In this document: piece after piece, positions 17,747 through 37,588 of the stretch | How positions within the stretch are numbered: position 1 is the first letter of the stretch | Layout: the number at the start of each line of letters is the position of its first letter | IMG/VR virus record: IMGVR_UViG_3300028883_000005 | Coordinates: 1-64,000 of that record | Length of the DNA: 64,000 nucleotides | Strand: one strand, 5' to 3' | Source: a virus | Translations under genes and position numbers: made by a program | Notes under the pieces: generated by a model | Databases searched by the model: none | Told to the model about the DNA's origin: nothing | The model's input: only the letters and a program-made list of their open reading frames with translations

Positions 17747-19290
17747 TATACACCAGAAACAAGATAAGCTCTGAAAGAGAAAAAGATTTAATGATCGGTC
17801 TTATAGCCGATACCAGGTTCTGTAGGGAGGTTATGCCCTCAGTAAAAAAGGACCTTCTTCAAGTAGATCAGTTTAAAGTCATATTGGATTGGATTCAAGA
17901 CTACTACAAAAAATATGATGAGGCTCCTAAAGAAAATATAGAGAAAATCTACATCGCTAAGAGACAAGAATTAGATCAAGCCTTAGGAGACAACATAGAA
18001 ATATTCCTAAGAACTTTATCTAAAAAGCTCGAAGGGATGGAGAGCTTCAACACAGATTATTATTCAGATGAAAGCATTAAGTATCTCAAGGAAAGGAACC
18101 TTCAGGTTTTACTTTCCAGAGCTCAAGGTCTTATAGATATAGGTAATGTAGACGAGGCAGAGCAGGTTTTTTCTACTTATAGGAAGGTTGCTAGAACAAC
18201 GAGCAAATGGATAAACCCACTATCTAAAGAGTTTGTAGAATCTGTTCTGTTTAAAGAAGAGGAATATCTATTTCAGTTCCCTGGAGCAGTGGGTGCTTTA
18301 CTAGGTAAGCTCAAGAGAAAACAGCTCGTAGCTGTTTTAGCACCAATGAAAAGAGGAAAGACCTGGTGGATGCTCGAAGCTTTATGGTTGCTCGCCTCTA
18401 ATCACCTCAAAGCTGTTCTAATTTCCCTAGAAATGGATGAAGAGGAAATAGGAAGCAGAAGTTTTAAAAGAATAACCGGAATGGATTATGAGAAGGAAGA
18501 AATTACAATACCCGTTTTCGACTGTTTGAGAAACCAAAAAAACAGATGTAATCTGCCAATAAGAGAATCCAATTCTGATGGCCTTCCTTTAGATGAACTA
18601 GATATGCCTCCAGCATATAGCGAAAAGTACAATCACACCCCCTGCTCTGCATGTAGAGATAAAAAAGATGGAAATTTCATACCTGGTATTTGGTATGTCA
18701 AAAGGACTTCTCCTAAAATAGATTATTCTAATCTGACTTCTACTTTGAAATCGTTTGAAGAAAGTTTTGGAGATAATATACGGATAATTAGTTATCCTAT
18801 GAATACTGCTAATATAAGCGATGTAAAAAGAGATTTGGATCTTCTAGAGTATACAGAAGGGTTCGTTCCTGATGGCATTGTTTTGGACTATGCAGATATT
18901 TTAGGACCTGAAGATTCTAGATTGGTAGGAAGAGATAGCATCAACCAAACTTGGAAGATGCTGAAAAACCTAGCTCAAGAGAGAAACTCTTTAGTAATCA
19001 CGGCAACACAAAGCAATAGAGGTAGCATGGATAGAAGGAGGGTTAAGCCTACGGATACTAGTGAGGACATTCGAAAGCTAGCCCATGTGAACTTAATGGT
19101 ATCTCTTAATCAAACTCCTAGGGAAAAGAGAAGAGGATTAATGAGACTAGGAGTATCCGTAGCTCGTGGTGTGGAATTTGACGAGCTACAAGAGGTGCTT
19201 GTAGTTCAGGAACTTTCAATTGGTCAGCCCTTTTTAGATTCTGAAGTGCCTGGCTTTTTAGAAGATGAAGGAGAAAATCATGAAGATTAG
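17743..19290 (+). CDS. dnaB: DnaB-like replicative helicase
   Basis: APMKRGKT, ISLEM, IVLDYAD, ITATQSNR, SEDIRK. Confidence 0.9.
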   Translation: MIYTRNKISSEREKDLMIGLIADTRFCREVMPSVKKDLLQVDQFKVILDWIQDYYKKYDEAPKENIEKIYIAKRQELDQALGDNIEIFLRTLSKKLEGMESFNTDYYSDESIKYLKERNLQVLLSRAQGLIDIGNVDEAEQVFSTYRKVARTTSKWINPLSKEFVESVLFKEEEYLFQFPGAVGALLGKLKRKQLVAVLAPMKRGKTWWMLEALWLLASNHLKAVLISLEMDEEEIGSRSFKRITGMDYEKEEITIPVFDCLRNQKNRCNLPIRESNSDGLPLDELDMPPAYSEKYNHTPCSACRDKKDGNFIPGIWYVKRTSPKIDYSNLTSTLKSFEESFGDNIRIISYPMNTANISDVKRDLDLLEYTEGFVPDGIVLDYADILGPEDSRLVGRDSINQTWKMLKNLAQERNSLVITATQSNRGSMDRRRVKPTDTSEDIRKLAHVNLMVSLNQTPREKRRGLMRLGVSVARGVEFDELQEVLVVQELSIGQPFLDSEVPGFLEDEGENHED

Positions 19291-19648
19291 TGTATGCAAA
19301 ATATTTGAGTTTCACGCCGCACATCACCTCCCTCATTACTCTGGCAAATGTAGAGAGGTTCATGGTCATTCCTACACACTTGAGATTGAGATAAGTGGAG
19401 AGGTGGGCGCTTGGACTGGAATGATATGCGACTTCTCTGAGCTTAAAAAGAAAGTTGAGGGTGCTATTATTTTCCATTTAGATCACAAAGATCTGAATAT
19501 ACTGATGGAAAACCCCACCGCCGAAAAAACTGTGGAGCTTATTGTGAGTAGGAAAAATCAGTATGTTCCAGACGGTGCAGAGCTAGAAAGGGTTCGTCTT
19601 TACGAGACCCGCACAAGTTTTGCAGAGTGGAGGAGGGAACAACAATGA
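19280..19648 (+). CDS. queD: 6-carboxy-5,6,7,8-tetrahydropterin synthase
   Basis: FEFHAAHHL...CREVHGHSY...DFSELK...LDH...PTAE...LYET. Confidence 0.92.
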   Translation: MKISVCKIFEFHAAHHLPHYSGKCREVHGHSYTLEIEISGEVGAWTGMICDFSELKKKVEGAIIFHLDHKDLNILMENPTAEKTVELIVSRKNQYVPDGAELERVRLYETRTSFAEWRREQQ

Positions 19649-20328
19649 ACAGAGGTAAAACAGACTTTTGCTCAGCTCCTTTATGGGAGGTTTTCACTTC
19701 TATAGACGGTGAAGTGAACAATATAGGTCAAGGGGTTTTGAGTAAATTCATAAGAGTAGCAGGATGCAATCTCCACTGCTCTTGGTGTGACACTAAAATA
19801 ACGCAAACGGTTCCTAAAGAAGCTTCTTGGGAAAACTCTGCAAGTATGATGAGATCTGGTATTATAGGCAGAGACCACGTTCAGAAATACACCATCACAG
19901 GGGGCGAGCCGCTTCTTTACCCAGAGTGGGTTAGAGAAGTGGTGAACACTCTAGTAGCTCTGGGTAAGAGCGTGTCTGTAGAAACAAACGGTTCTAGAGT
20001 TCTAGTACCAGGATTAGACTGCTGCTGGGTGATAGACGATAAGCCGCCTTCTTCAGGTCATCTGGGTAGTTTTGTATACAGCAATTTGTGTACGATGAGA
20101 GAAGGAAGAGACTGGATTAAAATTGTAATAGCAACACAAGAAGATTTAGAATGGGCTATCGAGGAGACTAAATATATAAGTAGCAGGATTGGTAAGGCAA
20201 ACATCGCTTGGAGCTTATCTGAAACTTGTGAGGTTGAAGCTAAACATATCATTAGCGTTTTACTGGAAGAAAGCCTGCATTATGTTAGAATTAATGCCCA
20301 GCTTCATAAGTACTTAGGATTATTGTAA
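19645..20328 (+). CDS. queE: 7-carboxy-7-deazaguanine synthase (radical SAM)
   Basis: EVFTSIDGE, FIRVAGCNLHCSWCDT, TGGEP, ETNG, QLHKY. Confidence 0.92.
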   Translation: MNRGKTDFCSAPLWEVFTSIDGEVNNIGQGVLSKFIRVAGCNLHCSWCDTKITQTVPKEASWENSASMMRSGIIGRDHVQKYTITGGEPLLYPEWVREVVNTLVALGKSVSVETNGSRVLVPGLDCCWVIDDKPPSSGHLGSFVYSNLCTMREGRDWIKIVIATQEDLEWAIEETKYISSRIGKANIAWSLSETCEVEAKHIISVLLEESLHYVRINAQLHKYLGLL

Positions 20329-20483: not shown

Positions 20484-21098
20484 ATGTTGAGCCCAGAATT
20501 CTGCAATGCAACATCCGTTCGGAAAGAGATTGGCGCGCTGAACAAGTGCGGCGTGCTGGCCGAAAAAGTGAAAGCTGTCGGAGTGGCCAAGAAGGAGTTG
20601 GTGGAGTCTTTCCTGAAGGCCGTGGAATCGGTTCCCGAGGGCACCGAGGAAGCCAAGAAGATCCCTGCTTCCGTCATCAAGCTCTACAATGAAATCGTTG
20701 AAGGTGTTGATCCTTCGCCGGAAGAGCAGGAAAAGCTCAAGGCCGCCAAGACCAAGAAGAAGGACGCCAAGCCCCGCGGCCCCAGCAATGAAGCCAAAGC
20801 TCTGGAAATTTTCACCGAATCTTTCAAGGCCGGCCTGGACGACGCAGCAATCAAGGCCAAGATGACCGAGTACTTCAAACCGTACTATGAAGCTCGTGGA
20901 AAGGGGGATCAACCGGATTTCATCGAGAAGCGGGTGGGCATCTATACCAACATTGCCAAGAAGCAATACTTTGCCGCCCATCCCGACGAGGCTCCCAAAA
21001 AAGAGGAAAAGCCTCCGAAGAAGGAAACTGCCAAAAAGGATGCCGCCAAAGACGAGAAGGCCGCCACCGGCGAAGAGGAAGCGCCCACGGAGGGGTAG
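20484..21098 (+). CDS. Lys/Glu/Ala-rich protein, possibly nucleoid-associated and highly expressed
   Basis: AAGGAGG RBS; GC-rich third positions unlike neighbours; KKEEKPPKKETAKK tail. Confidence 0.7.
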   Translation: MLSPEFCNATSVRKEIGALNKCGVLAEKVKAVGVAKKELVESFLKAVESVPEGTEEAKKIPASVIKLYNEIVEGVDPSPEEQEKLKAAKTKKKDAKPRGPSNEAKALEIFTESFKAGLDDAAIKAKMTEYFKPYYEARGKGDQPDFIEKRVGIYTNIAKKQYFAAHPDEAPKKEEKPPKKETAKKDAAKDEKAATGEEEAPTEG

Positions 21099-21099
21099 A

Positions 21100-21690
21100 A
21101 TGGACCGGAGCCTAACTGAGCAATATCTTCAGAAGGCTTTAACTGAGGGGTTGGGGCTTGATATTAAAGACCCCAACCTCTCAGGAACTCCTGGGCGCAT
21201 CGCTAAGATGTGGACCCAGGAGTTTTTCTCCTCTTTAGAGCATCCTGAAGGTTTCGACAATCTCACTTCCTTTCCTAATGATAGGGAGTATGATCAAATA
21301 ATCCTATTAGATAAGATCCATTTCGTTTCCATGTGTTCCCATCACTTTCTGCCCTTCGCTGGTATAGCTTGGTTAGGTTATATACCTAAAGGGCAACTCG
21401 CTGGAGCTTCAAAGCCTTCACGCCTGATTAACTTTTACTCCAAGAAACCGCAGCTTCAAGAACACCTCTCTCATGAGATTATCGATTGTTTCAATGAAAA
21501 GATAGAACCTCAAGGATGCATTGTTGTAATGCGTGGTATCCATGGCTGCATGAGTAATCGAGGGGCCCTCCAGTATAATGGAAGTGGTATGACAACCTCC
21601 GCAGTTAGCGGTGTTTTCAGAGATGACAGCAAGGCTAGGTCTGAGGTTATGGACCTAATAAAAATATCCTTAATGATCCACGAATTGTAA
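21100..21690 (+). CDS. folE: GTP cyclohydrolase I
   Basis: TPGRIAKMW, SMCSHHFLPF, GASK, QLQE, HGCMSNRG, TTSAVSGVF; true start ATG 21100. Confidence 0.93.
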   Translation: MDRSLTEQYLQKALTEGLGLDIKDPNLSGTPGRIAKMWTQEFFSSLEHPEGFDNLTSFPNDREYDQIILLDKIHFVSMCSHHFLPFAGIAWLGYIPKGQLAGASKPSRLINFYSKKPQLQEHLSHEIIDCFNEKIEPQGCIVVMRGIHGCMSNRGALQYNGSGMTTSAVSGVFRDDSKARSEVMDLIKISLMIHEL

Positions 21691-21713: not shown

Positions 21714-22064
21714 ATGGATAATAAAATCTACGCTCGAATCATCATTAATTTTCAATTTGAAGCTTTACACTCTTGGCCGGGGTGTTCTCTTTTGGACGTA
21801 AGTTTCCTTAAGAACGCCCATCGCCATGTTTTTCATGTAGAGATGAAAAAATTGGTGATGCATGACGATCGAGATATAGAATTTATACACTTCAAAAGAG
21901 AGGTTTTGAGGTGGGTGAGAGAGAACTGGGAAGAAAAAGATCTAGAATCTAAATCCTGCGAAATGATCGCTACCCATCTTCTTCTCTTATTTGAATGTGA
22001 CTATGTAAAAGTAATGGAGGACGGAGAAAATGGAGCAGAAGTCTTCAAGGATCATAATAATTGA
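21714..22064 (+). CDS. QueD-like T-fold protein (candidate DpdL-type)
   Basis: FEALHSWP...FLKNAHRHVFHV...DRDIEF...SCEMIA...V.EDGENGA; H..HxH metal motif, but the QueD CxxxHGH motif is absent. Confidence 0.75.
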   Translation: MDNKIYARIIINFQFEALHSWPGCSLLDVSFLKNAHRHVFHVEMKKLVMHDDRDIEFIHFKREVLRWVRENWEEKDLESKSCEMIATHLLLLFECDYVKVMEDGENGAEVFKDHNN

Positions 22065-23400
22065 TCCCACTTCAACAGAGTTTAATCGAGGATCATTTTG
22101 TTATTTGCCTTACATCGTTTTTAGTTATTACAAGGATTATTGTGATGCAGAGCTTTGGGAGGACTTCACCGCCGCACAAATTGACAACATCCCTCCTGAA
22201 GATGAAGTCTTGGTTGCTCTTTGGAGTTACCCTCAAGTAGACCTCTGCAAGACAATATATCGCTTCTCTGCCTCTAGGAAAATAAAGTTCTTCGGGTATA
22301 CACCTCTGGTTAAGTGGGCGGGGCTGCCCTTAAAAGTTTTTACTCCCGCTCGTATTAAACAAGGAATCGTAAGTTATGCTAATTATGTATCCCTGGGGGC
22401 TTTCTATCATATCCTTTTGTCAGATTGTGATATGCATCTTAATAAATATGATGGCATTGTGTACCCTTTGTTCTCTTCCTACGGGTGCCCTAGGAAATGC
22501 ACCTTCTGCCCCTCTTGTGTAGCGAGCGAGCATAGAAGACTTTGCATTCATCTAGATGATGTAGAAATTATGCTCAGTACGATGTACAACAGAGGTATTA
22601 GGAATATCCATTTCACCGACGAAGACTTTTTTATGATTCACAAAAGAACTCATGAAGTCTTGAAAATTGCCAAAAGAATAGGTGATTTCAATTTTATAGC
22701 CCTGGCACATCTAGACACATTAAAAAAGTTTGTGGAGGAGTATGGACCAGAGTGTCTGAAAGAATTTGGAGTTAGATTAGTAGAGTTAGGGTTTGAAACA
22801 GCCGATCCTGCTCTAGCTAAGTCCATGAAAAAAGGAAAGTCTCTCCAAGAGTACATCGATGTATACACCGCTGTAAAAGACTACACGGACATTTTCTGGT
22901 TGTGTCTAACTTTCTTTCCTGGGGAGACAATTACAACATTGAATGAAACAGGCAAGTTTCTTAGAGAATACGGAAGTAAGCCTGAAGATTTATACGATAG
23001 AATCAAAACAAACAGTACTGAAGGAGGACTAGGGCAGTTTTTTCAGCCTTACCCTGGGACTCCTGGATTTGAAGACCTTCCTAGTTTAGGTCATCAAATC
23101 GAAGATAGACCTGTTCGCCTCATGCCTAGTTTCCTTCCTGATTCTTTTCTAAACGATGAAATAGAATGGGCATATAAAGACGGATTTCGCAGCACAATAC
23201 CTGATAAAGTGTGGGAATGGACGGAGGTTTATAATCTACCTACAGGAAAAATAATTAAATTTTTAGCATGGGTGCCCCAAAATGTTCGCCAAGCTATTTT
23301 AGATGCGAAGAACAATTGTCATCTTTCCGCAGGCGAGGCAGCAACTTTCATCGCAATCCTAGCGAGACTAGGAATTATCAAAAGTGGGAGGAGATCATGA
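22030..23400 (+). CDS. Radical SAM enzyme, B12-binding (class B)-like
   Basis: SYGCPRKCTFC, IHFTDEDF, ELGFET, FFPGET, PYPGT; ~140-aa N-terminal domain. Confidence 0.8.
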   Translation: MEQKSSRIIIIDPTSTEFNRGSFCYLPYIVFSYYKDYCDAELWEDFTAAQIDNIPPEDEVLVALWSYPQVDLCKTIYRFSASRKIKFFGYTPLVKWAGLPLKVFTPARIKQGIVSYANYVSLGAFYHILLSDCDMHLNKYDGIVYPLFSSYGCPRKCTFCPSCVASEHRRLCIHLDDVEIMLSTMYNRGIRNIHFTDEDFFMIHKRTHEVLKIAKRIGDFNFIALAHLDTLKKFVEEYGPECLKEFGVRLVELGFETADPALAKSMKKGKSLQEYIDVYTAVKDYTDIFWLCLTFFPGETITTLNETGKFLREYGSKPEDLYDRIKTNSTEGGLGQFFQPYPGTPGFEDLPSLGHQIEDRPVRLMPSFLPDSFLNDEIEWAYKDGFRSTIPDKVWEWTEVYNLPTGKIIKFLAWVPQNVRQAILDAKNNCHLSAGEAATFIAILARLGIIKSGRRS

Positions 23401-24425
23401 AAATTATACTTGTTCCTATAGAGCCTTTTGAAGAGAGATATTCTATCCAGTGGTCTCGTTGGTTCAAAGAGAGCATTTCAAATCTAGATATACCATACAT
23501 AGAAATCTGCCCTGAGCCTCTTAAATCGTATAGAGAGACAGGTGCCTTTTTGGATGTTGTAGGAACCAACTACTTCAAGGCTACCCAACTTCAGATGATT
23601 TGTGATCTGATAGATCGTGGTGAGATTGAGAGTGGAGATGTTTTCTTGTTTCACGATCTTTGGTTCCCTGGTATCGAAATGCTCGCTTATATTAGAGACG
23701 GCATGGGTATGGATTTCAAAATCACAGGCTGTCTTCATGCAGGAACCTGGGATCCTTGGGATTTTCTAAGCCGAAGAAACATGGGGAGGTGGGGCACTTT
23801 ACTTGAAGAGTCGTGGTTTAAGTTTATAGATGCTGTTTTTGTAGCCACAGAATTTCACAAAGAGATGATTCAGTCATACTTTGATAGCCCGATACCAAGA
23901 ATCTACACTACTGGGTTTCCTATTAAAAATGAAGAAGAGCTACCAAATACTGGTAAAAATCAAGTAGTGTTCCCTCACCGTCTAGATAAAGAAAAAAATC
24001 CTGATAGATTTGACAAATTAGAAAAAGCTTTCACTTCAGAATACCCTCTACCTAAGGTGACCTTCCTTAAAACCAAAGAAGCATGTACTACAAAGAAAGA
24101 ATATTATGAGGTGCTGGCTAACTCTGTAGTTTCTGTTTCTTTTGCGAGTCAAGAAACTTGGGGAATCGCAATGATAGAGAGTGTGCTATCTGGTTGTATA
24201 CCATTTGTTCCTAATGAGCTAAGTTATGGAGAATTGTACCCTAAAGAGTTCAGATACGACTATGATTTTTCAGATGATCACTCTTATTTCCTTCTAGCAA
24301 AGAGGATCCATGAGGCTCTTAGGAACACCGAGTACCAAAACATGGTTGAGGATCTGGGTAAAAAATTTATCCTCAAAGGGTCTTTAGCTATACCTAGAAT
24401 GATAGAAATTATTATGGATTTGTAA
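23397..24425 (+). CDS. GT-B (GT4-like) glycosyltransferase, candidate DNA base glycosyltransferase
   Basis: FHDLWFPG, HAGTWDPWD, FPHRLDKEK, QETWGIAMIE (EX7E); start coupled to the radical SAM stop (ATGA). Confidence 0.85.
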   Translation: MKIILVPIEPFEERYSIQWSRWFKESISNLDIPYIEICPEPLKSYRETGAFLDVVGTNYFKATQLQMICDLIDRGEIESGDVFLFHDLWFPGIEMLAYIRDGMGMDFKITGCLHAGTWDPWDFLSRRNMGRWGTLLEESWFKFIDAVFVATEFHKEMIQSYFDSPIPRIYTTGFPIKNEEELPNTGKNQVVFPHRLDKEKNPDRFDKLEKAFTSEYPLPKVTFLKTKEACTTKKEYYEVLANSVVSVSFASQETWGIAMIESVLSGCIPFVPNELSYGELYPKEFRYDYDFSDDHSYFLLAKRIHEALRNTEYQNMVEDLGKKFILKGSLAIPRMIEIIMDL

Positions 24426-26068: not shown

Positions 26069-27046
26069 ATGGAAATGACCTTGTTTGTAGATTCAGGTGC
26101 TCCCAGTCTTTATAATCAATTTATACGCCGAAACAAAGGCGGTACTTATATGGGAAGCTTTCTTGAAGATAGGAAAAACGATGACTTCAGCTGGATCCAA
26201 AGCAAGGATTTCCAAACCTACCGAAGGAACTATGCTCTTTTTATCAAGAAAAATCTTCAGTTTATTGATTATTATGCAAATTTTGATGTGATTAATAATG
26301 CAGAAGCAACCTGGTCAAATCAGCAATACTACGAGTCTAAAGGATTGAAACCAATACCTGTTTGGCATTATGGAACAGATATGAAGTGGCTGGAAATGTA
26401 TTTGGAAAAAGGATATGACTATATCGCTATAGGGGGTCTGATACCTAACCCGCCTAGAATCTTGCTTCCTGCATTAGACTCTATATGGGGCTCTCTTCTC
26501 ACAGACTCTTCAGGAATGCCTAAAGTAAAAGTTCACGGATTTGCTGTAACTTCTACGAGACTAATTGCCCGCTACCCCTGGTTTAGTGTAGATTCCTCTT
26601 CTTGGGTAAAATTCGGACAATATGGAGTGATATGTGTCCCTCCTAAAAGAGGGGGAAAGTTTGATTATTCTACCACAGCTCATAATATTTTTGTATCCAC
26701 AAGATCGCCCTCCCAAGAAATTACAGGAAAGCACTATTACACACTGTCAGGCGCAGAGCAAGCAATGATTGATCAATACTTGGACCTTAAAGGTCATGTG
26801 ATGGGTAAATCAGAATTTAAAATGGTAGGTTCAGAATACGAACTTAAAGAAGATGAGGTTTTTGTCAGTGGAAGAAAGGGAGATGAGGAAAGAAGGGTGG
26901 AGATTATATTAGAGAGAGGCGTATGCAACGATTATAAGCTCAGGGACGAGCTTAATGTTCAATATTATATAGATTTGCAGAACAGTGTTCCGGAATGGCC
27001 TTGGGCTTTTCAAATTAATCAGAAGAAAGGATTCTTTGAAATATGA
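26069..27046 (+). CDS. dpdA: TGT-fold DNA 7-deazaguanine transglycosylase (DpdA-like), lacking the N-terminal barrel segment
   Basis: LFVDSGA, YANFDVI, PIPVWHYG, YIAIGGL, KVHGFA, YPWFSVDSSSW; co-occurs with folE/queD/queE. Confidence 0.8.
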   Translation: MEMTLFVDSGAPSLYNQFIRRNKGGTYMGSFLEDRKNDDFSWIQSKDFQTYRRNYALFIKKNLQFIDYYANFDVINNAEATWSNQQYYESKGLKPIPVWHYGTDMKWLEMYLEKGYDYIAIGGLIPNPPRILLPALDSIWGSLLTDSSGMPKVKVHGFAVTSTRLIARYPWFSVDSSSWVKFGQYGVICVPPKRGGKFDYSTTAHNIFVSTRSPSQEITGKHYYTLSGAEQAMIDQYLDLKGHVMGKSEFKMVGSEYELKEDEVFVSGRKGDEERRVEIILERGVCNDYKLRDELNVQYYIDLQNSVPEWPWAFQINQKKGFFEI

Positions 27047-27061
27047 AAAAGTATATCCTTT

Positions 27062-27433
27062 ATGGTGAAGAATAATGAAAGGACACAGGTAATGACCGAG
27101 AGAAAGCCCAGAAAAATACCTGAAGAAGAAACTTGGTCGGAGGCTTATAATTGTCATACTTTTATCAAGTCTTCCATTCCGGTAGATGTTAGTTGGGCAT
27201 CCGTAGGGGGAGGCTACCAAATAAAAGTGTGTGGTCAGCTATGCTCTGAAAAACCTTCAGATGTTGAAGAGGGGAAGATTTTAGCTTTGCTCAAAGCTCG
27301 TCGTTTAGCTAAAGCTTCCCTAGATAACCTAAACAAAGAATTAGAAGGTCTGTATAGAAAAGGACCTAAAAGATATATGGAGTTATATAATAAAATGCTC
27401 GAAGGAGAGATTAAATGGGAGAAGCAGAGATGA
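27062..27433 (+). CDS. Hypothetical protein
   Basis: ORF in packed operon; start uncertain. Confidence 0.55.
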   Translation: MVKNNERTQVMTERKPRKIPEEETWSEAYNCHTFIKSSIPVDVSWASVGGGYQIKVCGQLCSEKPSDVEEGKILALLKARRLAKASLDNLNKELEGLYRKGPKRYMELYNKMLEGEIKWEKQR

Positions 27434-27609
27434 AGTTATTCCTAGCGGGCAACTTCCCTCTGATGAGCAACATCGAGAAGGAAAGAGAGATGAAAGATTA
27501 TGTTTTTTCCAAAGATGCTCCTTATAATCGCCTAGCCAGTTTTTTCTATACTAAAGGAGCAGCAAACTTGGTAGAGATAAGAAGTGAAGTTTTGGAAGAG
27601 ACTAAATGA
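27430..27609 (+). CDS. Small FLAG/RLxSF-family protein A (candidate DpdA N-terminal subunit)
   Basis: MKLFLAGN...YNRLASFFY; ATGA-coupled start at 27430. Confidence 0.65.
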   Translation: MKLFLAGNFPLMSNIEKEREMKDYVFSKDAPYNRLASFFYTKGAANLVEIRSEVLEETK

Positions 27610-27812
27610 AAGTATTCTTCGCAGCGGTTGGCTACGAGCTAATGGACAGCTTTTTAAACGGAACAAAAGGGCAACATCGAAATATGCTCTTTTCATATTG
27701 GGAACTGTCAGGTAGTTCTGGATTTAAACAAAGAAAAATAAACTGGGAGAATATCACAAATGGAACTCAACAGATACGACCTTCAATGGTGCGTGAGGAG
27801 ACTTCCAAGTAA
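27606..27812 (+). CDS. Small FLAG/RLxSF-family protein B
   Basis: MKVFFAA...RNMLFSYW; ATGA-coupled. Confidence 0.6.
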   Translation: MKVFFAAVGYELMDSFLNGTKGQHRNMLFSYWELSGSSGFKQRKINWENITNGTQQIRPSMVREETSK

Positions 27813-28449
27813 CCTACGAAAGTTAATGAAGAAAGAAGAAATCACAGTAGGTGGAGGGTTCATTAGGTCCTGTATATTTAATGAAAAGCCCAACGATATC
27901 GACTTGTTTGTCCCAGATAAAGATTGGGCTAAAGAGCTGGCTTTGTTCCTAAGTGAGTACACTCCTGGGCGTTTAGTGCATACTCCTAATGCCATCACTA
28001 TCCGTGGCCCGCGCCCGCACGTTCAATTTATCACCAGATGGCTCTACGAAGAACCTCAAGATGTGATTCCTTCCTTCGACTTCACCCTTTGTCAAGCTAT
28101 CTTCTGGTGGGATCACTATTGCGGAAAATGGAAGTCTCTGGTTTCAGACGAGTTTTATCCTGCTTTAGCGGCTAAGAGGCTGGAGTACACAAACCCAGAC
28201 AGAAACGAGGATGCCGGAGGCAGCTTATTGAGGGTCCTTAAATACTACCAAAAAGGATTCCGCATCACTATACCTTCTTTCTCTGACGTAATGACCAGAT
28301 TGATCCGAGATATCGATTTTGATGAAATTAATAGAAATGTGAACAACTTTCCTGGACAGACACGAGAAGAGCGAATTAGTTGGATAATTAGAGGACTGCT
28401 CAGGGAGGTAGATCCTAACATTGACCCCGATCACATAGTAGGAGAATAA
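27760..28449 (+). CDS. Nucleotidyltransferase (poly(A) polymerase/CCA-adding superfamily)
   Basis: VGGGFIRS, PNDIDLF, FDFTLCQ, R..KY..KGF. Confidence 0.8.
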   Translation: MELNRYDLQWCVRRLPSNLRKLMKKEEITVGGGFIRSCIFNEKPNDIDLFVPDKDWAKELALFLSEYTPGRLVHTPNAITIRGPRPHVQFITRWLYEEPQDVIPSFDFTLCQAIFWWDHYCGKWKSLVSDEFYPALAAKRLEYTNPDRNEDAGGSLLRVLKYYQKGFRITIPSFSDVMTRLIRDIDFDEINRNVNNFPGQTREERISWIIRGLLREVDPNIDPDHIVGE

Positions 28450-28450
28450 A

Positions 28451-28759
28451 ATGAGCGACGGCAGGTTCGAAGGCGATAGTATTGAAGAGATTGTTTGTTT
28501 AGTAGGTCAACTAAACGACGAGATTTTTAATCAAACTGGCCGTGATCATGGTTGTGCTTATAGACCGTTGGTAGCTCATTTTGACGGTGACGATTGTGCG
28601 TCAACCGCCTCAGTTTACTTAATCGACATTTGTATCTGGAACTCCGATTGTAACAATAGAGGATTCGATGAGAGCTTTAATGTATACCAGCCCCTCAAGG
28701 AGTTTCTCATTCAAGAAATAAATAGAGTAGTATCTGAATTAAAAGAAATCAAACTTTAA
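28451..28759 (+). CDS. Hypothetical protein
   Basis: AGGAG RBS. Confidence 0.6.
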   Translation: MSDGRFEGDSIEEIVCLVGQLNDEIFNQTGRDHGCAYRPLVAHFDGDDCASTASVYLIDICIWNSDCNNRGFDESFNVYQPLKEFLIQEINRVVSELKEIKL

Positions 28760-28776
28760 ATCTAGGGAGAATAAAA

Positions 28777-29796
28777 ATGATTATGCAAAAGAAAGAGTTC
28801 CTTAAAGTGATGCAACTTCTAAAGCCTGGGCTAGCTAAGAAGGACATCATCGAAGAGTTTGTCCATTACCTTTTCACAGGAGATGATGTGATTACATTTA
28901 ATGATGAAATTTGCATCTCCCACCCCTTCAAAACAGATTTCAAATGCTCCTGCCGTGCTGAAGAGCTTTTCAAAACGGTAAACGGGATCAAAGAGGAAAC
29001 TTTGGAGGTTGGAATAGCAGAAGCCGGAAACTGCATCGAAATCAAATCTGCAGGCACACGAGCTCGACTTGCTGTGTCTTCCGAAGATAAGGCTTCGCAG
29101 CTAATCTCTGTACTCAACTTGGAAGAGGTGTGTAAAAACATGACTCCTCTTCCTAAAGACTTTGTCCGCGCTCTGTACCTTTGCATGTTCTCTGCCTCTA
29201 AGGACATGACTAAAGGTATATACACTTGTGTAAAAGTAGATTCAGATTCTGTTTACAGTTCTGACGGAGTGAGGATTAGTAAGTATAACTTAGAAGAGCA
29301 TACAGACTTGTCCACTCTAATACCTGCCAGAAATATTGAGCATTTAGTTCGTTTTCCAGTGATAGAGTTTCGCCTTACAGACAGCTGGTGTCATTTTAGA
29401 ACTGAAGAAGGCGTGGTGTTTAGTACTAGGGTGATGGAGGGCGAGTACCCCTCTCTTGATCAGTATTTTACTATTGAGGGAAAGAGAGTGAGGCTTCCTT
29501 CAGAGATAAAATCTCTGGTGTCCAGTGTTTCTTTCATGTCTGATGATAAGGTTATCAAAGACAAAACGGTCACTATGGTAATAAGTAGTGGCCAGATAAC
29601 CTGTAAGGCAGAAAAGAAAGACATAGGTATGGTAGAAAGAGACTTCGATTTTGAATATGCACAAGAAGGGTTTGAGATTCAGATTAATCCTATATTCCTA
29701 AACGAAGTCTTGGAAAAAGCTACTATTATGAGAGTGAACAAAAATGCAGCTATGTTCACTTCGGGGACCTTTAACCACATTATTTCTTTGCAATAA
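28777..29796 (+). CDS. dnaN: DNA polymerase sliding clamp (beta subunit-like)
   Basis: 339 aa; SSDGVRIS, LIPAR, STRVMEGEYP, INPIFL. Confidence 0.85.
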   Translation: MIMQKKEFLKVMQLLKPGLAKKDIIEEFVHYLFTGDDVITFNDEICISHPFKTDFKCSCRAEELFKTVNGIKEETLEVGIAEAGNCIEIKSAGTRARLAVSSEDKASQLISVLNLEEVCKNMTPLPKDFVRALYLCMFSASKDMTKGIYTCVKVDSDSVYSSDGVRISKYNLEEHTDLSTLIPARNIEHLVRFPVIEFRLTDSWCHFRTEEGVVFSTRVMEGEYPSLDQYFTIEGKRVRLPSEIKSLVSSVSFMSDDKVIKDKTVTMVISSGQITCKAEKKDIGMVERDFDFEYAQEGFEIQINPIFLNEVLEKATIMRVNKNAAMFTSGTFNHIISLQ

Positions 29797-29831
29797 TGTG
29801 CTGAAGCTTATGCAAAAGGACAAAAATCCTT

Positions 29832-29890
29832 CGTGCTCTAAGCGCGAATTCTGCACGAACTTTATGTAGTCAATGCATTAGTATACATTT
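29832..29890. repeat. Dispersed ~60-bp element, copy 3
   Basis: GCTCTAAGCGCGAATTCTGCACG...CAATGCATTAGTATACATT. Confidence 0.9.
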
Positions 29891-29973
29891 GAAAGCTGCC
29901 AGCTATGAAATCTTTAATTAGTGGAAAAAGAGGCGGAGGGAATTAAGAAAAGGATAAAAGGGAGGTTCAAAGA

Positions 29974-30468
29974 ATGGTCGATTTTAAAAGAATACTTAGA
30001 GAAAGAGGTCTAAAAGCAGAGGCAGATTTCGCTCCTAAATCTCACAGACCAGACTCTCAAGGGGTATGTGTACAATGCGGCTCCGTTTTGGATTTGAGTG
30101 ATGCCCCTTCAGAATGCCCCGGACCTTACGAGTTTAAATGCACAGGAATCCGAACCAGCTGCATATATCCTGCCTTGGTGCATTCCCGCATAGCAGATCG
30201 TAAATTTGTAGAATTAGATTTAGAACTTAGATTCCTGATGGACGAGTGGTGGATTAATATCTTAAATGGGGTTACGGGATTTGAGAGCTGCTCTGTAAAG
30301 GATTTTACAACAGGAATGTACCAAGGCAGGAAGGGATGGACCGCCTGTGCAGGAACTACTGGGAGATGGGATTCTCTTTTTGTTCCTTTTAGCGAGTGCA
30401 AAAAGATTTTAAAATGGGTTGAGGGGGTGCTTAAACGAATAAACGGAGATGAGGATGAGGAAAAATGA
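29974..30468 (+). CDS. Hypothetical Cys-containing protein
   Basis: GGGAGG RBS; CVQCG...CPG. Confidence 0.65.
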   Translation: MVDFKRILRERGLKAEADFAPKSHRPDSQGVCVQCGSVLDLSDAPSECPGPYEFKCTGIRTSCIYPALVHSRIADRKFVELDLELRFLMDEWWINILNGVTGFESCSVKDFTTGMYQGRKGWTACAGTTGRWDSLFVPFSECKKILKWVEGVLKRINGDEDEEK

Positions 30469-30899
30469 AAGTTTTCCTGGCAGGAGTTCCCGCAGGCAAT
30501 CAAGCTGTTAGGGAGCATCACTTAAAAGCGATGGGTGCCAATAATCGCCTAACTACCTTTTACTATTTGAGGCAGGCAAAAATAACTATGAAAAAATATA
30601 AAGGTCCAGGTAAGGTGGTTCATTGCAAACGGGAACAATTTGATGTTTATATAGGTAGAACAAATACCATGCATCATTACGGAAACCCCTTTGTAGTGGG
30701 CACTCACGGAGATGCTTTTAAATGTGTATCTAATTATAGAAGATGGCTAACTACAAATGCATACCCACACTTAGAACCAGAGAGGAAAGCCTGGATACTA
30801 TCTAGGGTCAAAACCCTCAAAAACAAAAGGCTGGGCTGCTTCTGTACTAAGCCGCCCTGTCACGGATTTATTCTTTTAGAGTTGGCGGAGAAGTCATAA
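30465..30899 (+). CDS. FLAG/RLxSF module C fused to a DUF4326 domain
   Basis: N-terminal MKVFLAG...NNRLTTFYY; then VVHCKREQFDVYIGR...YGNPF...LGCFC..PCHG (DUF4326). Confidence 0.8.
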   Translation: MKVFLAGVPAGNQAVREHHLKAMGANNRLTTFYYLRQAKITMKKYKGPGKVVHCKREQFDVYIGRTNTMHHYGNPFVVGTHGDAFKCVSNYRRWLTTNAYPHLEPERKAWILSRVKTLKNKRLGCFCTKPPCHGFILLELAEKS

Positions 30900-33583
30900 T
30901 GGCACTTAAAGGTTTTTTCCAAATAGAATCTACTGAACCTAGAAGGAATGCTAATAAAGAGCTTTTGGATAAAAGATATAACCATCCTGGCGATCCGGAT
31001 TGCTCTAGCTGTGGATTAGATAAAAAAGGATGCAAAAGGCCCAGGATACCTGTAACAGGAAATGGTAGAAGAAACATTCTAGGGATAGCAGAAGCTCCTG
31101 GGGCCACCGAAGACACACTAGGGAAGAATTTAGTGGGGGAGGCTGGTCAGTTTCTGGAAAAAAGTCTTAAACCTCTTGGGATTGATCTTCATAGAGACCT
31201 TTACTTAATAAATTCTGTAAATTGCCGTCCTCCTGAGAATAGAAAGCCTACAGATCATGAGTGCCTGTGTTGTCGTCCTTTATTGCTTAAAACCATCGAA
31301 GAGATAAAACCAGATCATATATGGTTATTTGGAGGAACTTCGGTAAGTACTTACATTAGAGATAGATTCAAAAACACAACAATCAGCAGATGGGTAAATT
31401 TACCCTTCCCTGACCCTGAAAATGGAGCTTGGGTTACTGCTCAATATCATCCTTCTTTTGTGATGAGAGGAAAAAACGATAATCTCAGAGCTATAAACCA
31501 GATATATCTCAAAAAAGCAGTAGGCCGTCTATCTTGGAATCCTTACGAGTTTCCTGACTTTGACAGTCAGGTTACTATTTTATTAGAATTTAAAAAAATA
31601 ATCTTCCATCTTAAAAGGATACTTAGAACTAAGCCTTCGATAACTATTGATTATGAATCCACAGGTGTGAAGCCATATAAGATTGGTCATAAGATCTATT
31701 GTGTAAGTATAGATGATGGAGATCAAAGCTATGTGATTCCTTTGCAAAGGCCTGGGTATTGGAAAGAGGAAGAATGGTCAGAAATTCATCGTTTATATGT
31801 AGAAATTTTGGAAGATCCTAAAATATTAAAAACAGCTCAAGGTAGAAATTTCGAGGACTCCTGGTCATCTGTTGTTTTAGGTGCAGATGTTAAAGGTTGG
31901 GATTGGTGCACTATGACAGCCTCACATCTTATAGATAGCAGAGAGAAATTCACAGGTCTGAAATTTCAAGCTTTCTTAAGATTTGGAATAACAGGTTATG
32001 AGGAAGAGATTGCACCATATCTGAAGTCGGATAAAGGAGAGGAATTTAACAATATTCATAATGCCCCTCCCGAAAAGCTACATCACTATTGTGGACTAGA
32101 TACAGTAAATACCAGAGAGCTGAAAAAATGGCAAAAATCCTTTTTTGATAGGCACCCAAAACTCGAAGCTGCCAGACAATTCACGATGGATGGTTTGGAA
32201 GCTCTAATGAGTGTGCAAAATGAAGGAATCGTAGCAGACAGGGCTTATTACGACGAGCAAAATGCTTTTCTAGGGGATGAGATAGAAAAATTAACATTAC
32301 AGATTTATCAGTCTAAGGAGGCAGAAAAGTTTAAAAAGAGAACAGGAAAGTCCTTTAACTATAAATCTTCTCAAGACTTACAAATTCTGTTTTTTGATAT
32401 TTTAGGGTATACACCAAAAAAGTTCACCAATAAAGATGAAACCAATGCATCGGTAGATGCTGAAGTTGTGAGTTCTATTAATTCACCTATAGCTAAAAAA
32501 ATTCTTCGTGTAAAGAAGCTCTACAAAGTAAAAAACACCTACTTGGCACAATTCTTCAGGGAAATTACTGAAGAGGGCAAGATACACCCTGTTCAGAATC
32601 TTCATATAGCTACCACACATAGAGGATCTCAAGATCATCCTAATTTTCAAAACATACCAGTTCGAGATGAGGAGTCTAAAAAGGTGTGCAGATCTGGTAT
32701 CGTTGCTTCTTTAGACCCTGAAGAGCCTGTTAGGCTAGGAGAAAAAGATTATGGGTCTCAAGAAGTTAGGATAATTGCTTGTTACTCTGAGGACCCTGTT
32801 TTAATAGATTATATTAATGATCCTACTACGAACATGCATCGAGATGAGGCGGCGGCCTTATTTATCCTACCTGAAGAAAGAGTAAGCAAAGATATCAGAT
32901 TTTATGCCAAAAACTGTTGGGTGTTCCCTCAATTTTATAAAAGCTGGTATGGAAGTTGTGCTAAGGATTTACAAAAGAACGTTATCATTCCTAATTTAAA
33001 AACAGCAGACGGTGAAAAGATACAGGACCACCTTAAGTCTAAAGGAATTTATACAGAGCAGTCTTTCGAGAATCATTGTAAAAGGATGGAGAGTGCTTTC
33101 TGGGACAAATACAAAGGTGTAAAGAAATGGCAAGATAAAACAATTAAAAAATATCTAGAGCAGGGGTACGTGGGGACTTTCTTTGGTCATAGAAGAACAG
33201 GTTTCTTGTCCCCTAACGAGATTGTGAATAGCCCTATTCAGGGCACAGCATTCCACTGTTTGCTTTGGACGTTAAAGAAAGTTAAAGATAGAATTAAGGA
33301 TTTAGGCTTCCGTAGCCGACCTAACAATCAAATACATGACTCCATTAAAAGCAAAATATATGTTGAAGAGCAAAACGAATATATCCAAATGGTAAAAACA
33401 ATTGCCGAAGATGAAATCAGAGAGCAAAATGGTTGGTTAATTGTACCACTACTATTAGAAATAGAGTTATGTCCTATAGGAGGAAACTGGTATCAGAAAG
33501 AGGAAGTGTTTTTTGAAGGCGGCACATGGGTAAGTAAAAACAAGGACGGTAGCATTAAGAACGTATACGATGAAAATTTCTAA
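30899..33583 (+). CDS. polA: Family A DNA polymerase with N-terminal family-4 uracil-DNA glycosylase-like domain
   Basis: UDG: CSSC, AEAPG, NSVNCRPP.NR.P, YHPS. Exo: IDYESTG. Pol: PNFQNIP, DYGSQEVR, R..AKN..FPQFY, NSPIQGTA, QIHDS. Confidence 0.93.
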   Translation: MALKGFFQIESTEPRRNANKELLDKRYNHPGDPDCSSCGLDKKGCKRPRIPVTGNGRRNILGIAEAPGATEDTLGKNLVGEAGQFLEKSLKPLGIDLHRDLYLINSVNCRPPENRKPTDHECLCCRPLLLKTIEEIKPDHIWLFGGTSVSTYIRDRFKNTTISRWVNLPFPDPENGAWVTAQYHPSFVMRGKNDNLRAINQIYLKKAVGRLSWNPYEFPDFDSQVTILLEFKKIIFHLKRILRTKPSITIDYESTGVKPYKIGHKIYCVSIDDGDQSYVIPLQRPGYWKEEEWSEIHRLYVEILEDPKILKTAQGRNFEDSWSSVVLGADVKGWDWCTMTASHLIDSREKFTGLKFQAFLRFGITGYEEEIAPYLKSDKGEEFNNIHNAPPEKLHHYCGLDTVNTRELKKWQKSFFDRHPKLEAARQFTMDGLEALMSVQNEGIVADRAYYDEQNAFLGDEIEKLTLQIYQSKEAEKFKKRTGKSFNYKSSQDLQILFFDILGYTPKKFTNKDETNASVDAEVVSSINSPIAKKILRVKKLYKVKNTYLAQFFREITEEGKIHPVQNLHIATTHRGSQDHPNFQNIPVRDEESKKVCRSGIVASLDPEEPVRLGEKDYGSQEVRIIACYSEDPVLIDYINDPTTNMHRDEAAALFILPEERVSKDIRFYAKNCWVFPQFYKSWYGSCAKDLQKNVIIPNLKTADGEKIQDHLKSKGIYTEQSFENHCKRMESAFWDKYKGVKKWQDKTIKKYLEQGYVGTFFGHRRTGFLSPNEIVNSPIQGTAFHCLLWTLKKVKDRIKDLGFRSRPNNQIHDSIKSKIYVEEQNEYIQMVKTIAEDEIREQNGWLIVPLLLEIELCPIGGNWYQKEEVFFEGGTWVSKNKDGSIKNVYDENF

Positions 33584-33863
33584 GATGATAATCATAGTAG
33601 TAACGCTTAGGGAGGAAGACTTTCTAGATAAGGAGCACACCCTCAAGGTTTGGGAAGCGATAAATAAGAGACTGCCTGAAGTTCCTTGGGAAAGATTTTG
33701 GGATCAAAGCAGGATTATAACTGAGTCTATTTTTGAAATTCCTGGCGAGAGGTATACTATACAAATTCCTATGAGATGTTTGTTATTTAAAAAGATAAAT
33801 TGGACTTGGAAACCAGAATGGAAAAAGAGGAAAGAACTCCTACTAAGGAAAATAAAATGGTAA
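33570..33863 (+). CDS. Hypothetical protein
   Basis: Packed ORF overlapping both neighbours. Confidence 0.5.
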   Translation: MKISKMIIIVVTLREEDFLDKEHTLKVWEAINKRLPEVPWERFWDQSRIITESIFEIPGERYTIQIPMRCLLFKKINWTWKPEWKKRKELLLRKIKW

Positions 33864-34111
33864 AGAATGTACCAAACCACCCTCATCCTCCCAGAGTTCC
33901 TAAACCTCCTAAACCTAAATATCATTTTGGTAGAAGGGCAAAGAGCAAAGATGAGAAGATGTTAGGTTTGCTTATTCATGATCTTTGCGTTCTTTCCTCC
34001 AGAGTAGATCAAGGTGTTCTATCTTCAGAGATTATTGAGGAAGAAGTAGAACGATATGTAGAGGCTTTTAAAAATAGGATGATGGGAAATGAATCTGTTT
34101 CTGGCGGGTAA
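33857..34111 (+). CDS. Hypothetical protein
   Basis: AAGGA RBS; Pro-rich N-terminus. Confidence 0.5.
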   Translation: MVKNVPNHPHPPRVPKPPKPKYHFGRRAKSKDEKMLGLLIHDLCVLSSRVDQGVLSSEIIEEEVERYVEAFKNRMMGNESVSGG

Positions 34112-34289
34112 TCCTGGTCATGGCAAAGCAGGAACTTACAGAGAGGAATATTTGATAAACAATAAATGTAACAGATTGATTAGTTACTTTTGGTTTGGTG
34201 AAGGTAAGGATTTTAATAAATATTTTGAGAGGTGGAAAGATGCCAAAGAAGATACTATTCACAGACACAGAGACTACAGGTGTAGATGA
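34089..34289 (+). CDS. Small FLAG/RLxSF-family protein D
   Basis: MNLFLAGNPG...CNRLISYFW. Confidence 0.65.
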   Translation: MNLFLAGNPGHGKAGTYREEYLINNKCNRLISYFWFGEGKDFNKYFERWKDAKEDTIHRHRDYRCR

Positions 34290-36414: not shown

Positions 36415-37588
36415 TCGGGAAGACCTGGTAAACCAGCTTAGAGAGAGAGCTCAGGAAAGCTACAAAAGCAAAGATGAAGGAGGTAAATACGGAAAGTATT
36501 ACCGATCCCCACCACTACCTGAATGGAAATGCTCTGAAGGTGAGCATGTGATTGACATCCTTCCTTTCTTTGCAGGTGAGAACTACCCCACCAAAAGCCA
36601 TGCAAGTCAAGGAAAACCGGTGGACCCAGGTAAAATTCTTTACTGGCTGGATGTATGGATTCATTCAAAGATCGGCGTAAACGAAGATAACGTGGTTTGC
36701 CCTTCTATGAGCTACGGCAAGCGGTGTCCCATCTGTGAAGATGTGGCGGCGGAAAGCAAAAAGCCTGCGAATCTCAAGGACGAAGCTTTCATAAAAGACA
36801 CCAAGGCAAAGCGCCGGTCTATGTATCTGATCGTTTGCAGGGATAGCGAATCCGAAGAGAACAAGGGCGTGCAGGTCTTCGAGGTAGCTCATTTCTATTT
36901 GGAAAAGCACATCTCTGCCCTGGCGAAGAAGCCCTTCGGTGGTGGATTTCGTTTGTTTTCGAATCCTTACAACGGCCAATCTGTTTACTTTTCCAAAAGT
37001 GGAACAGGGATGGGGCAGGAATGGTCCGGGTTTCAATTTCTTGATCGCGATTATGCCATCTCGGAAGAGCATCTGGATGTTGCGGCAGCTACTCCTCTGG
37101 CAGACTTCCTGATCCTTTTGGGTTACGAAGAGCTTTGGGAGAAATATTACGGAAAGCCCTTCGATGGAAGTTCTGCTAAGAGCCCCTCTGACTCTTCAAA
37201 TCCTGACTACCAGCCCAAAACTAGGGCTCCCAAAGAGGATCCACCTGAGGAGGCTAAAGAGGCTACGACTAGACCAACTAGGGCTCCGAAAGAGGAACCT
37301 GCTAAAGAGGATCCGCCCTCTAGAACTACCAGAGCCCCGAAAGAAGATCCACCCTCTAGAGCCACCAGAGCTCCGAAAGAGGAACCCCCCGAAGAGGAAC
37401 AACCTGTTCGGAGAACACGGAGACCCCTTCAAGAGGAACCTGCTGAAAAAGAACAGGAGTCTTCAGCCAAATGCCCTGGTGGTGGAGTATTTGGCAGAGA
37501 CATTGACAAGCTCTCAGGATGCGGACCTTGTGAACTATGGGACGATTGCGCCATAGAAGCACAACGGCTAGAGCAAGAAGGTAAATAA
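36404..37588 (+). CDS. Single-stranded DNA-binding protein (gp32-like)
   Basis: IDILPF, H...CP..YGKRCPICE zinc motif, KGVQVFE; long Pro/Glu linker. Confidence 0.75.
   Translation: MKFNREDLVNQLRERAQESYKSKDEGGKYGKYYRSPPLPEWKCSEGEHVIDILPFFAGENYPTKSHASQGKPVDPGKILYWLDVWIHSKIGVNEDNVVCPSMSYGKRCPICEDVAAESKKPANLKDEAFIKDTKAKRRSMYLIVCRDSESEENKGVQVFEVAHFYLEKHISALAKKPFGGGFRLFSNPYNGQSVYFSKSGTGMGQEWSGFQFLDRDYAISEEHLDVAAATPLADFLILLGYEELWEKYYGKPFDGSSAKSPSDSSNPDYQPKTRAPKEDPPEEAKEATTRPTRAPKEEPAKEDPPSRTTRAPKEDPPSRATRAPKEEPPEEEQPVRRTRRPLQEEPAEKEQESSAKCPGGGVFGRDIDKLSGCGPCELWDDCAIEAQRLEQEGK

Follow-up and report, generated by a model that had tools for sequence, protein, structure and literature searches.

The DNA 7-deazaguanine transglycosylase DpdA of Salmonella (7ui4) is described as a (beta/alpha)8 barrel in which Asp95 serves as general acid/base, Asp256 as nucleophile, and Phe99 stacks on the base, while two insertions, namely Ins1 (residues 16-36, strand-1 loop) and Ins2 (residues 54-68, strand-2 loop), precede Asp95 (PMC10164549). 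In the same account, Ins1 helps to form the DNA-binding surface, Ins2 flanks the active site, and a link to sequence recognition is considered possible. Phage DpdAs are described as limited to certain motifs, e.g., two motifs in the case of CAjan and a strict GA motif in the case of iggy. Phage 9g was assigned to DpdA1, with CAjan called a related phage, while the DpdA3 of phage phiST shares its pathway context of FolE, QueD, QueE, and DpdL, with no QueC, with the genome studied here (PMC10516641). Judging from its taxonomy line, phage Seurat would belong to the same subfamily as 9g and CAjan. In this study, we analysed bases 1-64000 of the virus record IMGVR_UViG_3300028883_000005 (82,575 bp, with direct terminal repeats), referred to as the window in the following, which harbors one DpdA-like gene (the core) and four small open reading frames (ORF1 to ORF4, the modules; positions in Table 1). 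Together, they probably encode a two-piece phage DpdA1-type DNA 7-deazaguanine transglycosylase, in which modules of about 60 amino acids (aa) would complete the barrel of the core as alternative holoenzymes.

The core is the only DpdA-like gene of this kind in the whole genome. Its ATG is preceded by a purine-rich run resembling a ribosome-binding site, and only eight further codons are open upstream of it (open frame of 333 aa in total). The catalytic Asp of the DSGAP motif is residue 8 and a second conserved Asp is residue 175, so that the core indeed begins seven residues ahead of its DSG, as the original prediction, made from the DNA letters alone, had claimed; all five ORFs also lie where they had been predicted. 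Comparison with the profile phrog_887 ('queuine tRNA-ribosyltransferase') resulted in a clear match (6.6e-36), while a Pfam scan revealed no family above its cut-off and a phmmer search against PDB sequences no match. Among phage isolates, 186 records matched the core, with one-chain phage DpdAs as the nearest, all of them below 60% identity and none spanning 80% of the query. The DpdA of phage Seurat, for example, shared 37% identity over 171 aa (E 4e-39).

Modelling of the core alone with AlphaFold2 (AF2) resulted in a confident fold (mean predicted local distance difference test, pLDDT, of 90.1) with six barrel strands (residues 6-7, 68-70, 98-101, 118-122, 154-158, and 173-175), together with a C-terminal insertion rich in beta structure and a final helix. 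The best Foldseek match of this model was Salmonella DpdA 7ui4 (E 4.4e-3, with every Foldseek E-value above 0.001), and 7ui4 and tRNA-guanine transglycosylases (TGTs) were the best structural matches, at an identity of 18%. VIA-align superposed 219 residues on 7ui4 (Z 13.2, root mean square deviation 3.2 A) with model residues 1 to 309 on chain residues 88 to 409, and reached Z values of about 12.2-12.7 with TGTs; core residue 1 falls at residue 95 of the Z. mobilis TGT, and the alignment is colinear. The model thus corresponds to a TGT-type (beta/alpha)8 barrel for strands 3 to 8, and the eight strands are not contained in one polypeptide. Since the colinear alignment begins at residue 88 of 7ui4, the modelled core chain is without barrel strands 1 and 2, i.e., without everything before strand 3, and nothing in it corresponds to residues 1-87 of 7ui4. 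The core alone is therefore not a complete barrel in the model, in line with the original prediction.

The residues D8, D73, H100, and D175 were invariant in 40 of 40 aligned cores, D175 being part of a YPW-x-S-x-D-S motif, and so were D8-S9-G10, which align with the DSG of one-chain DpdAs. By motif and alignment range only, D8 would be the counterpart of Asp95 of Salmonella DpdA, while D175, D73, and H100 are motif-level candidates for its Asp256, Asp130, and His181. The mechanism is presumed to be a double displacement by two Asp residues, as described for Salmonella DpdA and TGT (PMC10164549). Unlike 7ui4 and the TGTs, the core lacks the zinc-binding CxCxxC...H motif, holding two distant Cys residues instead, none of them invariant in the family, and no DpdB-type partner is known here.

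Among the 120 best homologues of the core protein, 96 start at most 30 residues before the Asp, while 16 carry a fused N-terminal module, 7 another extension, and 1 is a fragment. The split is thus the majority architecture of a large clade and not a peculiarity of one phage. A scan of viral contigs seeded with an alignment of 40 cores resulted in 592 relatives, from which 80 loci were kept (numbered with the prefix L), while seeding with the single core protein retrieved no relatives. A pattern for core recognition missed 13 of these 80 loci, which were kept in the counts of module classes, pathway genes, and strands, so that the architecture of the core could be tabulated for 67 loci. Of these, 32 harbored a short core, 22 a module in the same open frame, and 13 another extension. 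In regard to such extensions, the cores of the closest relatives (L005:9728-10018 and L006/L007 as well as the proteins P0005, P0011, P0013, P0017, and P0018) carry 72-88 aa at their N-terminus that begin like strand 1 (M-K/N/I-I/L/P-Y), yet are not recognized by the module profile; no counterpart is present upstream of the core studied here.

All four modules start with an MK/N-x-F-L/F-A-G/A motif, followed by an N-x-L-x-S/T-F/Y motif, as had been noticed beforehand. A first hidden Markov model (HMM), for which solely the N-terminal modules that 13 relatives carry fused to their core were used, was run on the 1641 six-frame ORFs of the 82.6-kb genome and ranked ORF3 (9e-8), ORF4 (9.1e-8), and ORF1 (9.2e-5) at the top. 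With a second HMM, built from 90 modules of other phages, the values were 2.4e-10, 2.4e-11, and 3.8e-8, respectively. A fifth candidate at 18632-18489 on the minus strand (E 0.0038 with the first HMM) was lost with the second and is regarded as a chance hit. In a profile-profile comparison by hhalign, as proposed with the prediction, 60 aligned modules were compared with four one-chain DpdAs, and module positions 1-34 were placed on profile positions 5-50 with a probability of 86% and an E-value of 4.9e-6; in Seurat DpdA, these profile positions correspond to residues 1-46. The DpdAs of vB_Ade_ART, MMDA13, AL-2, Seurat, and BcepGomr, all annotated one-chain proteins, possess about 60 residues ahead of DSGAFS (the Asp being residue 63 in Seurat), which begin with M-x-V-Y/F-x-A-A/G and continue to I/R-L-E-S-Y/W-H-Y; the N-terminal pattern that the original prediction gave for full-length proteins is thus present in them. 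These profile comparisons show homology between the small ORFs and the N-terminal part of DpdA.

The same relation is visible in proteins in which module and core are joined. A profile search of 1.84 billion representatives revealed 713 proteins matching the module at E 0.001 or better, and the best 150 of them comprised 145 proteins of 39-117 aa, 4 DpdA-like proteins with tandem modules, and 1 false positive, a Cys-rich repeat protein (P0132, 502 aa, 7 stretches) that matched the strand-2 motif only. In the four tandem proteins (P0156, P0163, P0191, and P0244; 345-405 aa), two or three modules, each beginning with Met, precede a single core in one frame; one of these proteins comes from a source of high GC content. 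In addition, 11 of 13 fused forms retained a Met 10-14 residues before the Asp, which is the start site of stand-alone cores, so that fused loci may also produce a free core from it.

Free modules and cores were also found together, in the co-occurrence survey that had been suggested along with the prediction, whichever of the two was searched for. The second HMM revealed 226 hits in 222 ORFs of the 80 loci (threshold E 0.01 or better), with 66 loci showing a hit. All 226 hits were on the strand of the core, though 17,350 of the 27,920 searched ORFs were on the opposite one. At least one free small module ORF was present in 65 of the 80 loci and at least two in 54, with a maximum of six, and 149 of 165 free modules in the 67-locus table were located at most 2.5 kb from the DSG motif. 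Starting conversely from one module class, a core was found within 8 kb in 33 of 33 loci, including 16 of 16 contigs outside the first set. The modules form recurrent classes, and of the 60 loci that harbored two or more modules, just 1 showed a named class twice.

In a comparison covering seven related loci, the gene order core-ORF1-ORF2-clamp-ORF3-PolA-ORF4 was kept in L005, L006, L008, and L011, with the exonuclease, where present, and then the clamp loader following ORF4, while L009 ends after the clamp. Orthologues of ORF1 directly follow the core in L005, L006, L008, L009, L011, and L013 (42-52% identity), and those of ORF3 and ORF4 are located before and after the polymerase gene, respectively, in L005, L006, L008, and L011, the ORF3 orthologues as stand-alone modules. 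Identities to these relatives ranged from 33 to 58% for the modules, from 43 to 47% for the clamp, and from 41 to 45% for the polymerase. In the window itself, the modules are old paralogues that share 24-38% identity with ORF1, and the sole DNA-level repeat among them is a stretch of 26 nt (81%) over the strand-2 motif. ORF1, ORF2, and ORF3 overlap the preceding stop codon by 4 nt, in the case of ORF2 that of ORF1, and ORF4 starts 23 nt within the preceding ORF. At their 3' ends, ORF2 (27760-27812) overlaps a nucleotidyltransferase-like gene and ORF4 (34240-34289) the exonuclease gene, each by about 50 nt. The ORF finder placed the start of ORF1 at 27415 instead of 27430. In general, ORFs as short as 50-70 aa are frequently overlooked in gene prediction.

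A complex model, as proposed with the original prediction, was computed for one pair, the core (40-row alignment) together with ORF4 (60-row alignment). The three runs reached interface scores (interaction prediction score from aligned errors, ipSAE) of 0.88, 0.88, and 0.87, whereas none of the three controls exceeded 0.00. Of 80 solved complexes, 58 attain the mark set for this score, and so do 2 of 110 mismatched pairs, a rough calibration (own alignments used). At least 92% of the contacts were common to the runs, and the pLDDT of the partner was at least 84. The contacts with the least error connected ORF4 residues 2-6 with core residues 173-177 and ORF4 residues 28-33 with core residues 4-7, i.e., with the last and the first barrel strand of the core modelled alone. 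In this model, ORF4 would cover both open strand edges, as barrel closure requires.

The analysis shows that the core is missing two strands, that the modules are homologous to this part, that the two are joined in relatives, and that they co-occur whichever of them is searched for; the docking of one module is modelled. Beyond this, we infer alternative holoenzymes that would differ in specificity. The 325-aa core, with both presumed catalytic aspartates, strands 3 to 8, and the C-terminal insertion, could not close the barrel alone. Strand 1 with its loop, strand 2, and a short helix would be contributed in trans by a module, which would insert between strands 8 and 3. Each of the four versions would form its own holoenzyme with the single core. 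The class-specific sequence of the modules lies between strands 1 and 2 and after strand 2, which are the positions of Ins1 and Ins2. Because these loops are placed along the DNA-binding surface and beside the active site in Salmonella DpdA, the modules would alter the guanine contexts that are modified and together widen the coverage. That one module of each class is retained side by side, and that several modules occur on one core chain in the tandem proteins, argues for distinct roles. Completion of the barrel in trans, as originally proposed, is backed by the homology of the modules, by fused relatives, by the linkage in both directions, and by a docking model for ORF4, with ORF2 included by orthology only. 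Interchangeable subunits that tune DNA specificity, base preference, or timing, as also proposed originally, would be a possible function of the modules.

Several observations weigh against this interpretation. Of the 80 loci, 14 yielded no module hit at the E 0.01 threshold, and 11 of the 32 short cores were without a module in their flanks; at looser thresholds, weak module-like ORFs adjoined the core at several of the hit-less loci, with the exception of L027, L037, L059, and L061. Free modules were also carried by 21 of the 22 loci with a module-containing core ORF, which is unexplained by a simple logic of the missing piece. ORF2 was not significant by profile (E 1.8 with the first HMM; 0.12 with the second, as fourth best). 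Its orthologues occupy the same place in L005, L006, L008, L009, and L011 (tblastn 1e-11 to 2.5e-5) and themselves score 0.002-0.022 with the module HMM, so that ORF2 is a putative member by orthology and not by profile significance. That the core closes its barrel with strands of its own C-terminal part is made unlikely only by the colinear alignment of the model. Furthermore, the complex model may have passed because of its resemblance to solved one-chain TGT and DpdA barrels, since the pair is in effect a split solved fold, and its score shows likeness rather than binding. In the AF2 model of the fused relative P0091, pLDDT was below 50 for residues 7-44 (15 of 68 alignment rows chosen as module-bearing), so that the module is not placed in the barrel with confidence by this one-chain model.

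We regard a more far-reaching, combinatorial version of the split enzyme as doubtful. According to it, each pairing of the core with one barrel quarter writes 7-deazaguanine in a different context, so that a single catalytic gene would suffice for a phage to reach most of its guanines; relatives could turn single specificities on and off by slippage of (AG)n runs within the quarter genes, and ORF3 drags its DUF4326 along, which is taken, equally tentatively, for a phosphatase-like domain brought to the enzyme. ORF3 residues 51-139 represent this domain (PF14216; E 9.8e-20; 71.5 bits, the cut-off being 25). No match to DUF4326 was found in the seven relatives that were compared, in which the ORF3-type module stands by itself.

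It is unlikely that only one module is the true partner of the core, most likely the 'AGVPxG' version ORF3, and that the other three compete with it for one site as inhibitors or timers, or serve as docking tags that recruit other proteins to the enzyme (e.g., DUF4326, fused to ORF3). 'AGVPxG' is the class most often fused to cores elsewhere, cores of the DSGAF clade have the VPGG class fused immediately ahead of them, and ORF3 bears the additional DUF4326 domain. The persistence of free modules beside complete fused enzymes, as well as the location of modules next to clamp, polymerase, and exonuclease genes, would also fit such accessory roles. However, ORF4, a module outside the VPGG class, is docked with high confidence by the model, and other classes are fused to cores as well, e.g., in L032, L036, and L034. 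In addition, the docking motifs of strand 1 and strand 2 are kept in every class, and the absence of DUF4326 from the seven relatives argues against tethering as a conserved role.

Considerably less probable is a self-sufficient core that folds alone or oligomerizes, with the mini-proteins serving other purposes such as DNA binding or interference with a host TGT or Dpd-type enzyme. The loci without a significant module and the Lys/Arg-rich tails of many modules would agree with it, and AF2 folds the core confidently alone; yet, a confident AF2 fold of a fragment is no proof of its stability, and strands 3 and 8 are open edges that are covered by the module in the model. Moreover, the fused relatives and all one-chain DpdAs checked carry the module precisely at the corresponding position of the chain, and core and module are tightly linked in both directions. 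A mis-started or degraded core with small ORFs that arose by chance or are remnants of pseudogenes is highly improbable, for although ORF2 alone is not significant and frameshifted modules are known in relatives, the frame of the core ends 8 codons ahead of its start, and this start site is shared by 96 of 120 homologues. All four small ORFs are also uninterrupted and keep their synteny in phages with no more than 41-47% identity in clamp and polymerase, and 713 cluster representatives match the module profile, with 145 of the best 150 having 39-117 aa.

Compared with described phage enzymes, the split enzyme proposed here is a relative of the one-chain DpdA1 type (Seurat/CAjan, 9g, vB_Ade_ART, MMDA13, Vibrio phage AL-2, and BcepGomr), with the same conserved motifs in the core and the same neighborhood of FolE/QueD/QueE, sliding clamp, and polymerase. 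The DpdA1-type isolates hold strands 1 and 2 in one chain, whereas the phage studied here encodes this quarter separately, in four versions; its core has Pro in place of the stacking Phe and also differs in the C-terminal third. No free modules were detected with the module profile around four one-chain DpdA1-type genes checked, and the split type was found in none of the six isolates with a relative of the core (vB_Ade_ART, MMDA13, AL-2, Seurat, BcepGomr, and phiSM), which are all one-chain. The phiST DpdA3 (CGPG_00065) is one chain with its own N-terminal strands; the core revealed no significant similarity to it (best BLASTP E 0.15), and no module hits occurred in the 8.3 kb examined around its gene. 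Judged by these similarities, the core would be a DpdA1-type relative and not a DpdA3. The layout is common in uncultured phages and represents a new variant within the DpdA enzyme family; in the literature searched, supplementary tables aside, no description of a split DpdA or of such mini-genes was found.

The exchange of barrel quarters on one core resembles, by analogy, type I restriction-modification systems, in which exchangeable HsdS specificity subunits retarget one catalytic core, so that one catalytic unit is combined with several exchangeable DNA-recognition parts. Unlike HsdS, which is a separate DNA-binding subunit, the part exchanged here would itself belong to the catalytic barrel, as one quarter of it. 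Engineered half- and quarter-barrel fragments are known to assemble (beta/alpha)8 barrels from separate chains by complementation. Unlike these, the system described here would, if the interpretation is correct, be a natural TIM-barrel (triosephosphate isomerase barrel) enzyme that is completed in trans by any of several related fragments. It would bear on the evolution of TIM barrels and on an exchange of specificity that leaves the catalytic residues untouched, and offer a route to what sets the sequence motif of deazaguanine insertion into DNA.

As a practical consequence, the annotated 'dpdA' of such phages should be inactive when cloned alone, and heterologous tests would need the small genes. 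Unsuccessful tests with phage proteins have been described, namely for phiSM DpdA1, which was inactive in E. coli, for members of the DpdA3 and DpdA4 families, and for dpdL together with dpdA from phiST and ACP17 (PMC10516641). We rejected the split as an explanation of these failures in E. coli, as phiST DpdA3 (259 aa) and phiSM DpdA1 (240 aa) are one-chain proteins that possess N-terminal strands themselves.

Pro12 of the DSGAP motif occupies the position of the base-stacking aromatic residue, and the replacement, which the original prediction had also pointed out, is widespread: among 119 homologues with the motif, the residue after DSGA was Pro in 52 and Phe or Tyr in 61. In the window, QueD, QueE, and FolE are located 4-7 kb upstream of the core, providing a context of 7-deazaguanine synthesis, and are followed by a DpdL-like gene, a radical SAM gene, and a glycosyltransferase-like gene (Table 1), while QueC was not found in the genome. 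The phiST protein CGPG_00067, to which the DpdL-like gene product is similar, was named DpdL and proposed to be a decarboxylase of 7-carboxy-7-deazaguanine (CDG) (PMC10516641).

Table 1. Positions of the core gene, the four module ORFs, and the base-synthesis genes in the window
Feature	Position	Strand	Description
DpdA-like catalytic core	26069-27046	+	325 aa; barrel strands 3-8, beta-rich C-terminal insertion, last helix
Module ORF1, class 'AGNFP'	27430-27609	+	59 aa; strand 1, loop, strand 2, short helix
Module ORF2, class 'AAVG'	27606-27812	+	68 aa; most divergent of the four
Module ORF3, class 'AGVPxG'	30465-30899	+	144 aa; module = residues 1 to about 50
Module ORF4, class 'AGNxGxG'	34089-34289	+	66 aa
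QueD	19265-19648	+	base-synthesis gene
QueE	19627-20328	+	base-synthesis gene
FolE	20887-21690	+	base-synthesis gene
DpdL-like	21714-22064	+	116 aa; 38% identity, E 1e-13 to phiST CGPG_00067
Radical SAM	22030-23400	+	follows the DpdL-like gene
Glycosyltransferase-like	about 23394-24425	+	end of the base-synthesis run

Across the 80 loci, the residue after DSGA and the pathway genes varied together. Cores with Phe or Tyr were accompanied by QueC in 35 of 50 cases and by a DpdL-like gene in none of the 50, whereas all 18 cores with Pro, His, Thr, or Val were accompanied by a DpdL-like gene and none of them by QueC. Homologues of the radical SAM and the glycosyltransferase-like genes were present with the 16 Pro, Thr, or Val cores, while the 2 His cores had the glycosyltransferase-like homologue only. 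In 12 loci the residue was unreadable; 6 of these harbored DpdL, 5 QueC, and 1 neither. Since non-aromatic cores always occurred with a DpdL-like gene and never with QueC, the loss of the stacking aromatic residue tracks the base made, i.e., a change of the base pathway, and not the split. The inserted base is probably 7-deazaguanine or a further derivative of it and not preQ0, and the linkage to genes for a radical SAM and a glycosyltransferase-like protein points to a guanine modification beyond 7-deazaguanine that would be new to the literature. The cores with Pro in place of Phe mark a large uncultured clade that combines the split enzyme with a QueC-less DpdL/radical-SAM/glycosyltransferase pathway and may make a novel guanine modification.

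Some further observations were made on the module genes of the relatives. In the DSGAF clade, core-adjacent modules were frameshifted exactly at an (AG)n/(GA)n run encoding a conserved R-E-R-E stretch (L035:9820-9960, L051:317-450, L083:9853-10000, L063:9668-9800, L026:2640-2760, and L048:10580-10700). Over the 80 loci, 38 of 44 (AG)n runs of at least 9 nt were located in module hits or at most 60 nt from them, a portion that makes up about 4% of the sequence, and no (CT)n runs were found on the same strand. These frameshifts could represent either phase variation by slippage or decay; slippage at simple repeats may be likened to the switching in phase-variable restriction-modification systems. 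The module genes of the window are without an AG run, the only one in the genome being at 36440-36449. Two further broken modules (L028:5880-6000 and L077:7679-7830) were interrupted at runs of eight G, which may be sequencing errors. Finally, many free modules (L005-L084) end with a Lys/Arg-rich tail, a composition that would suit contact with DNA.

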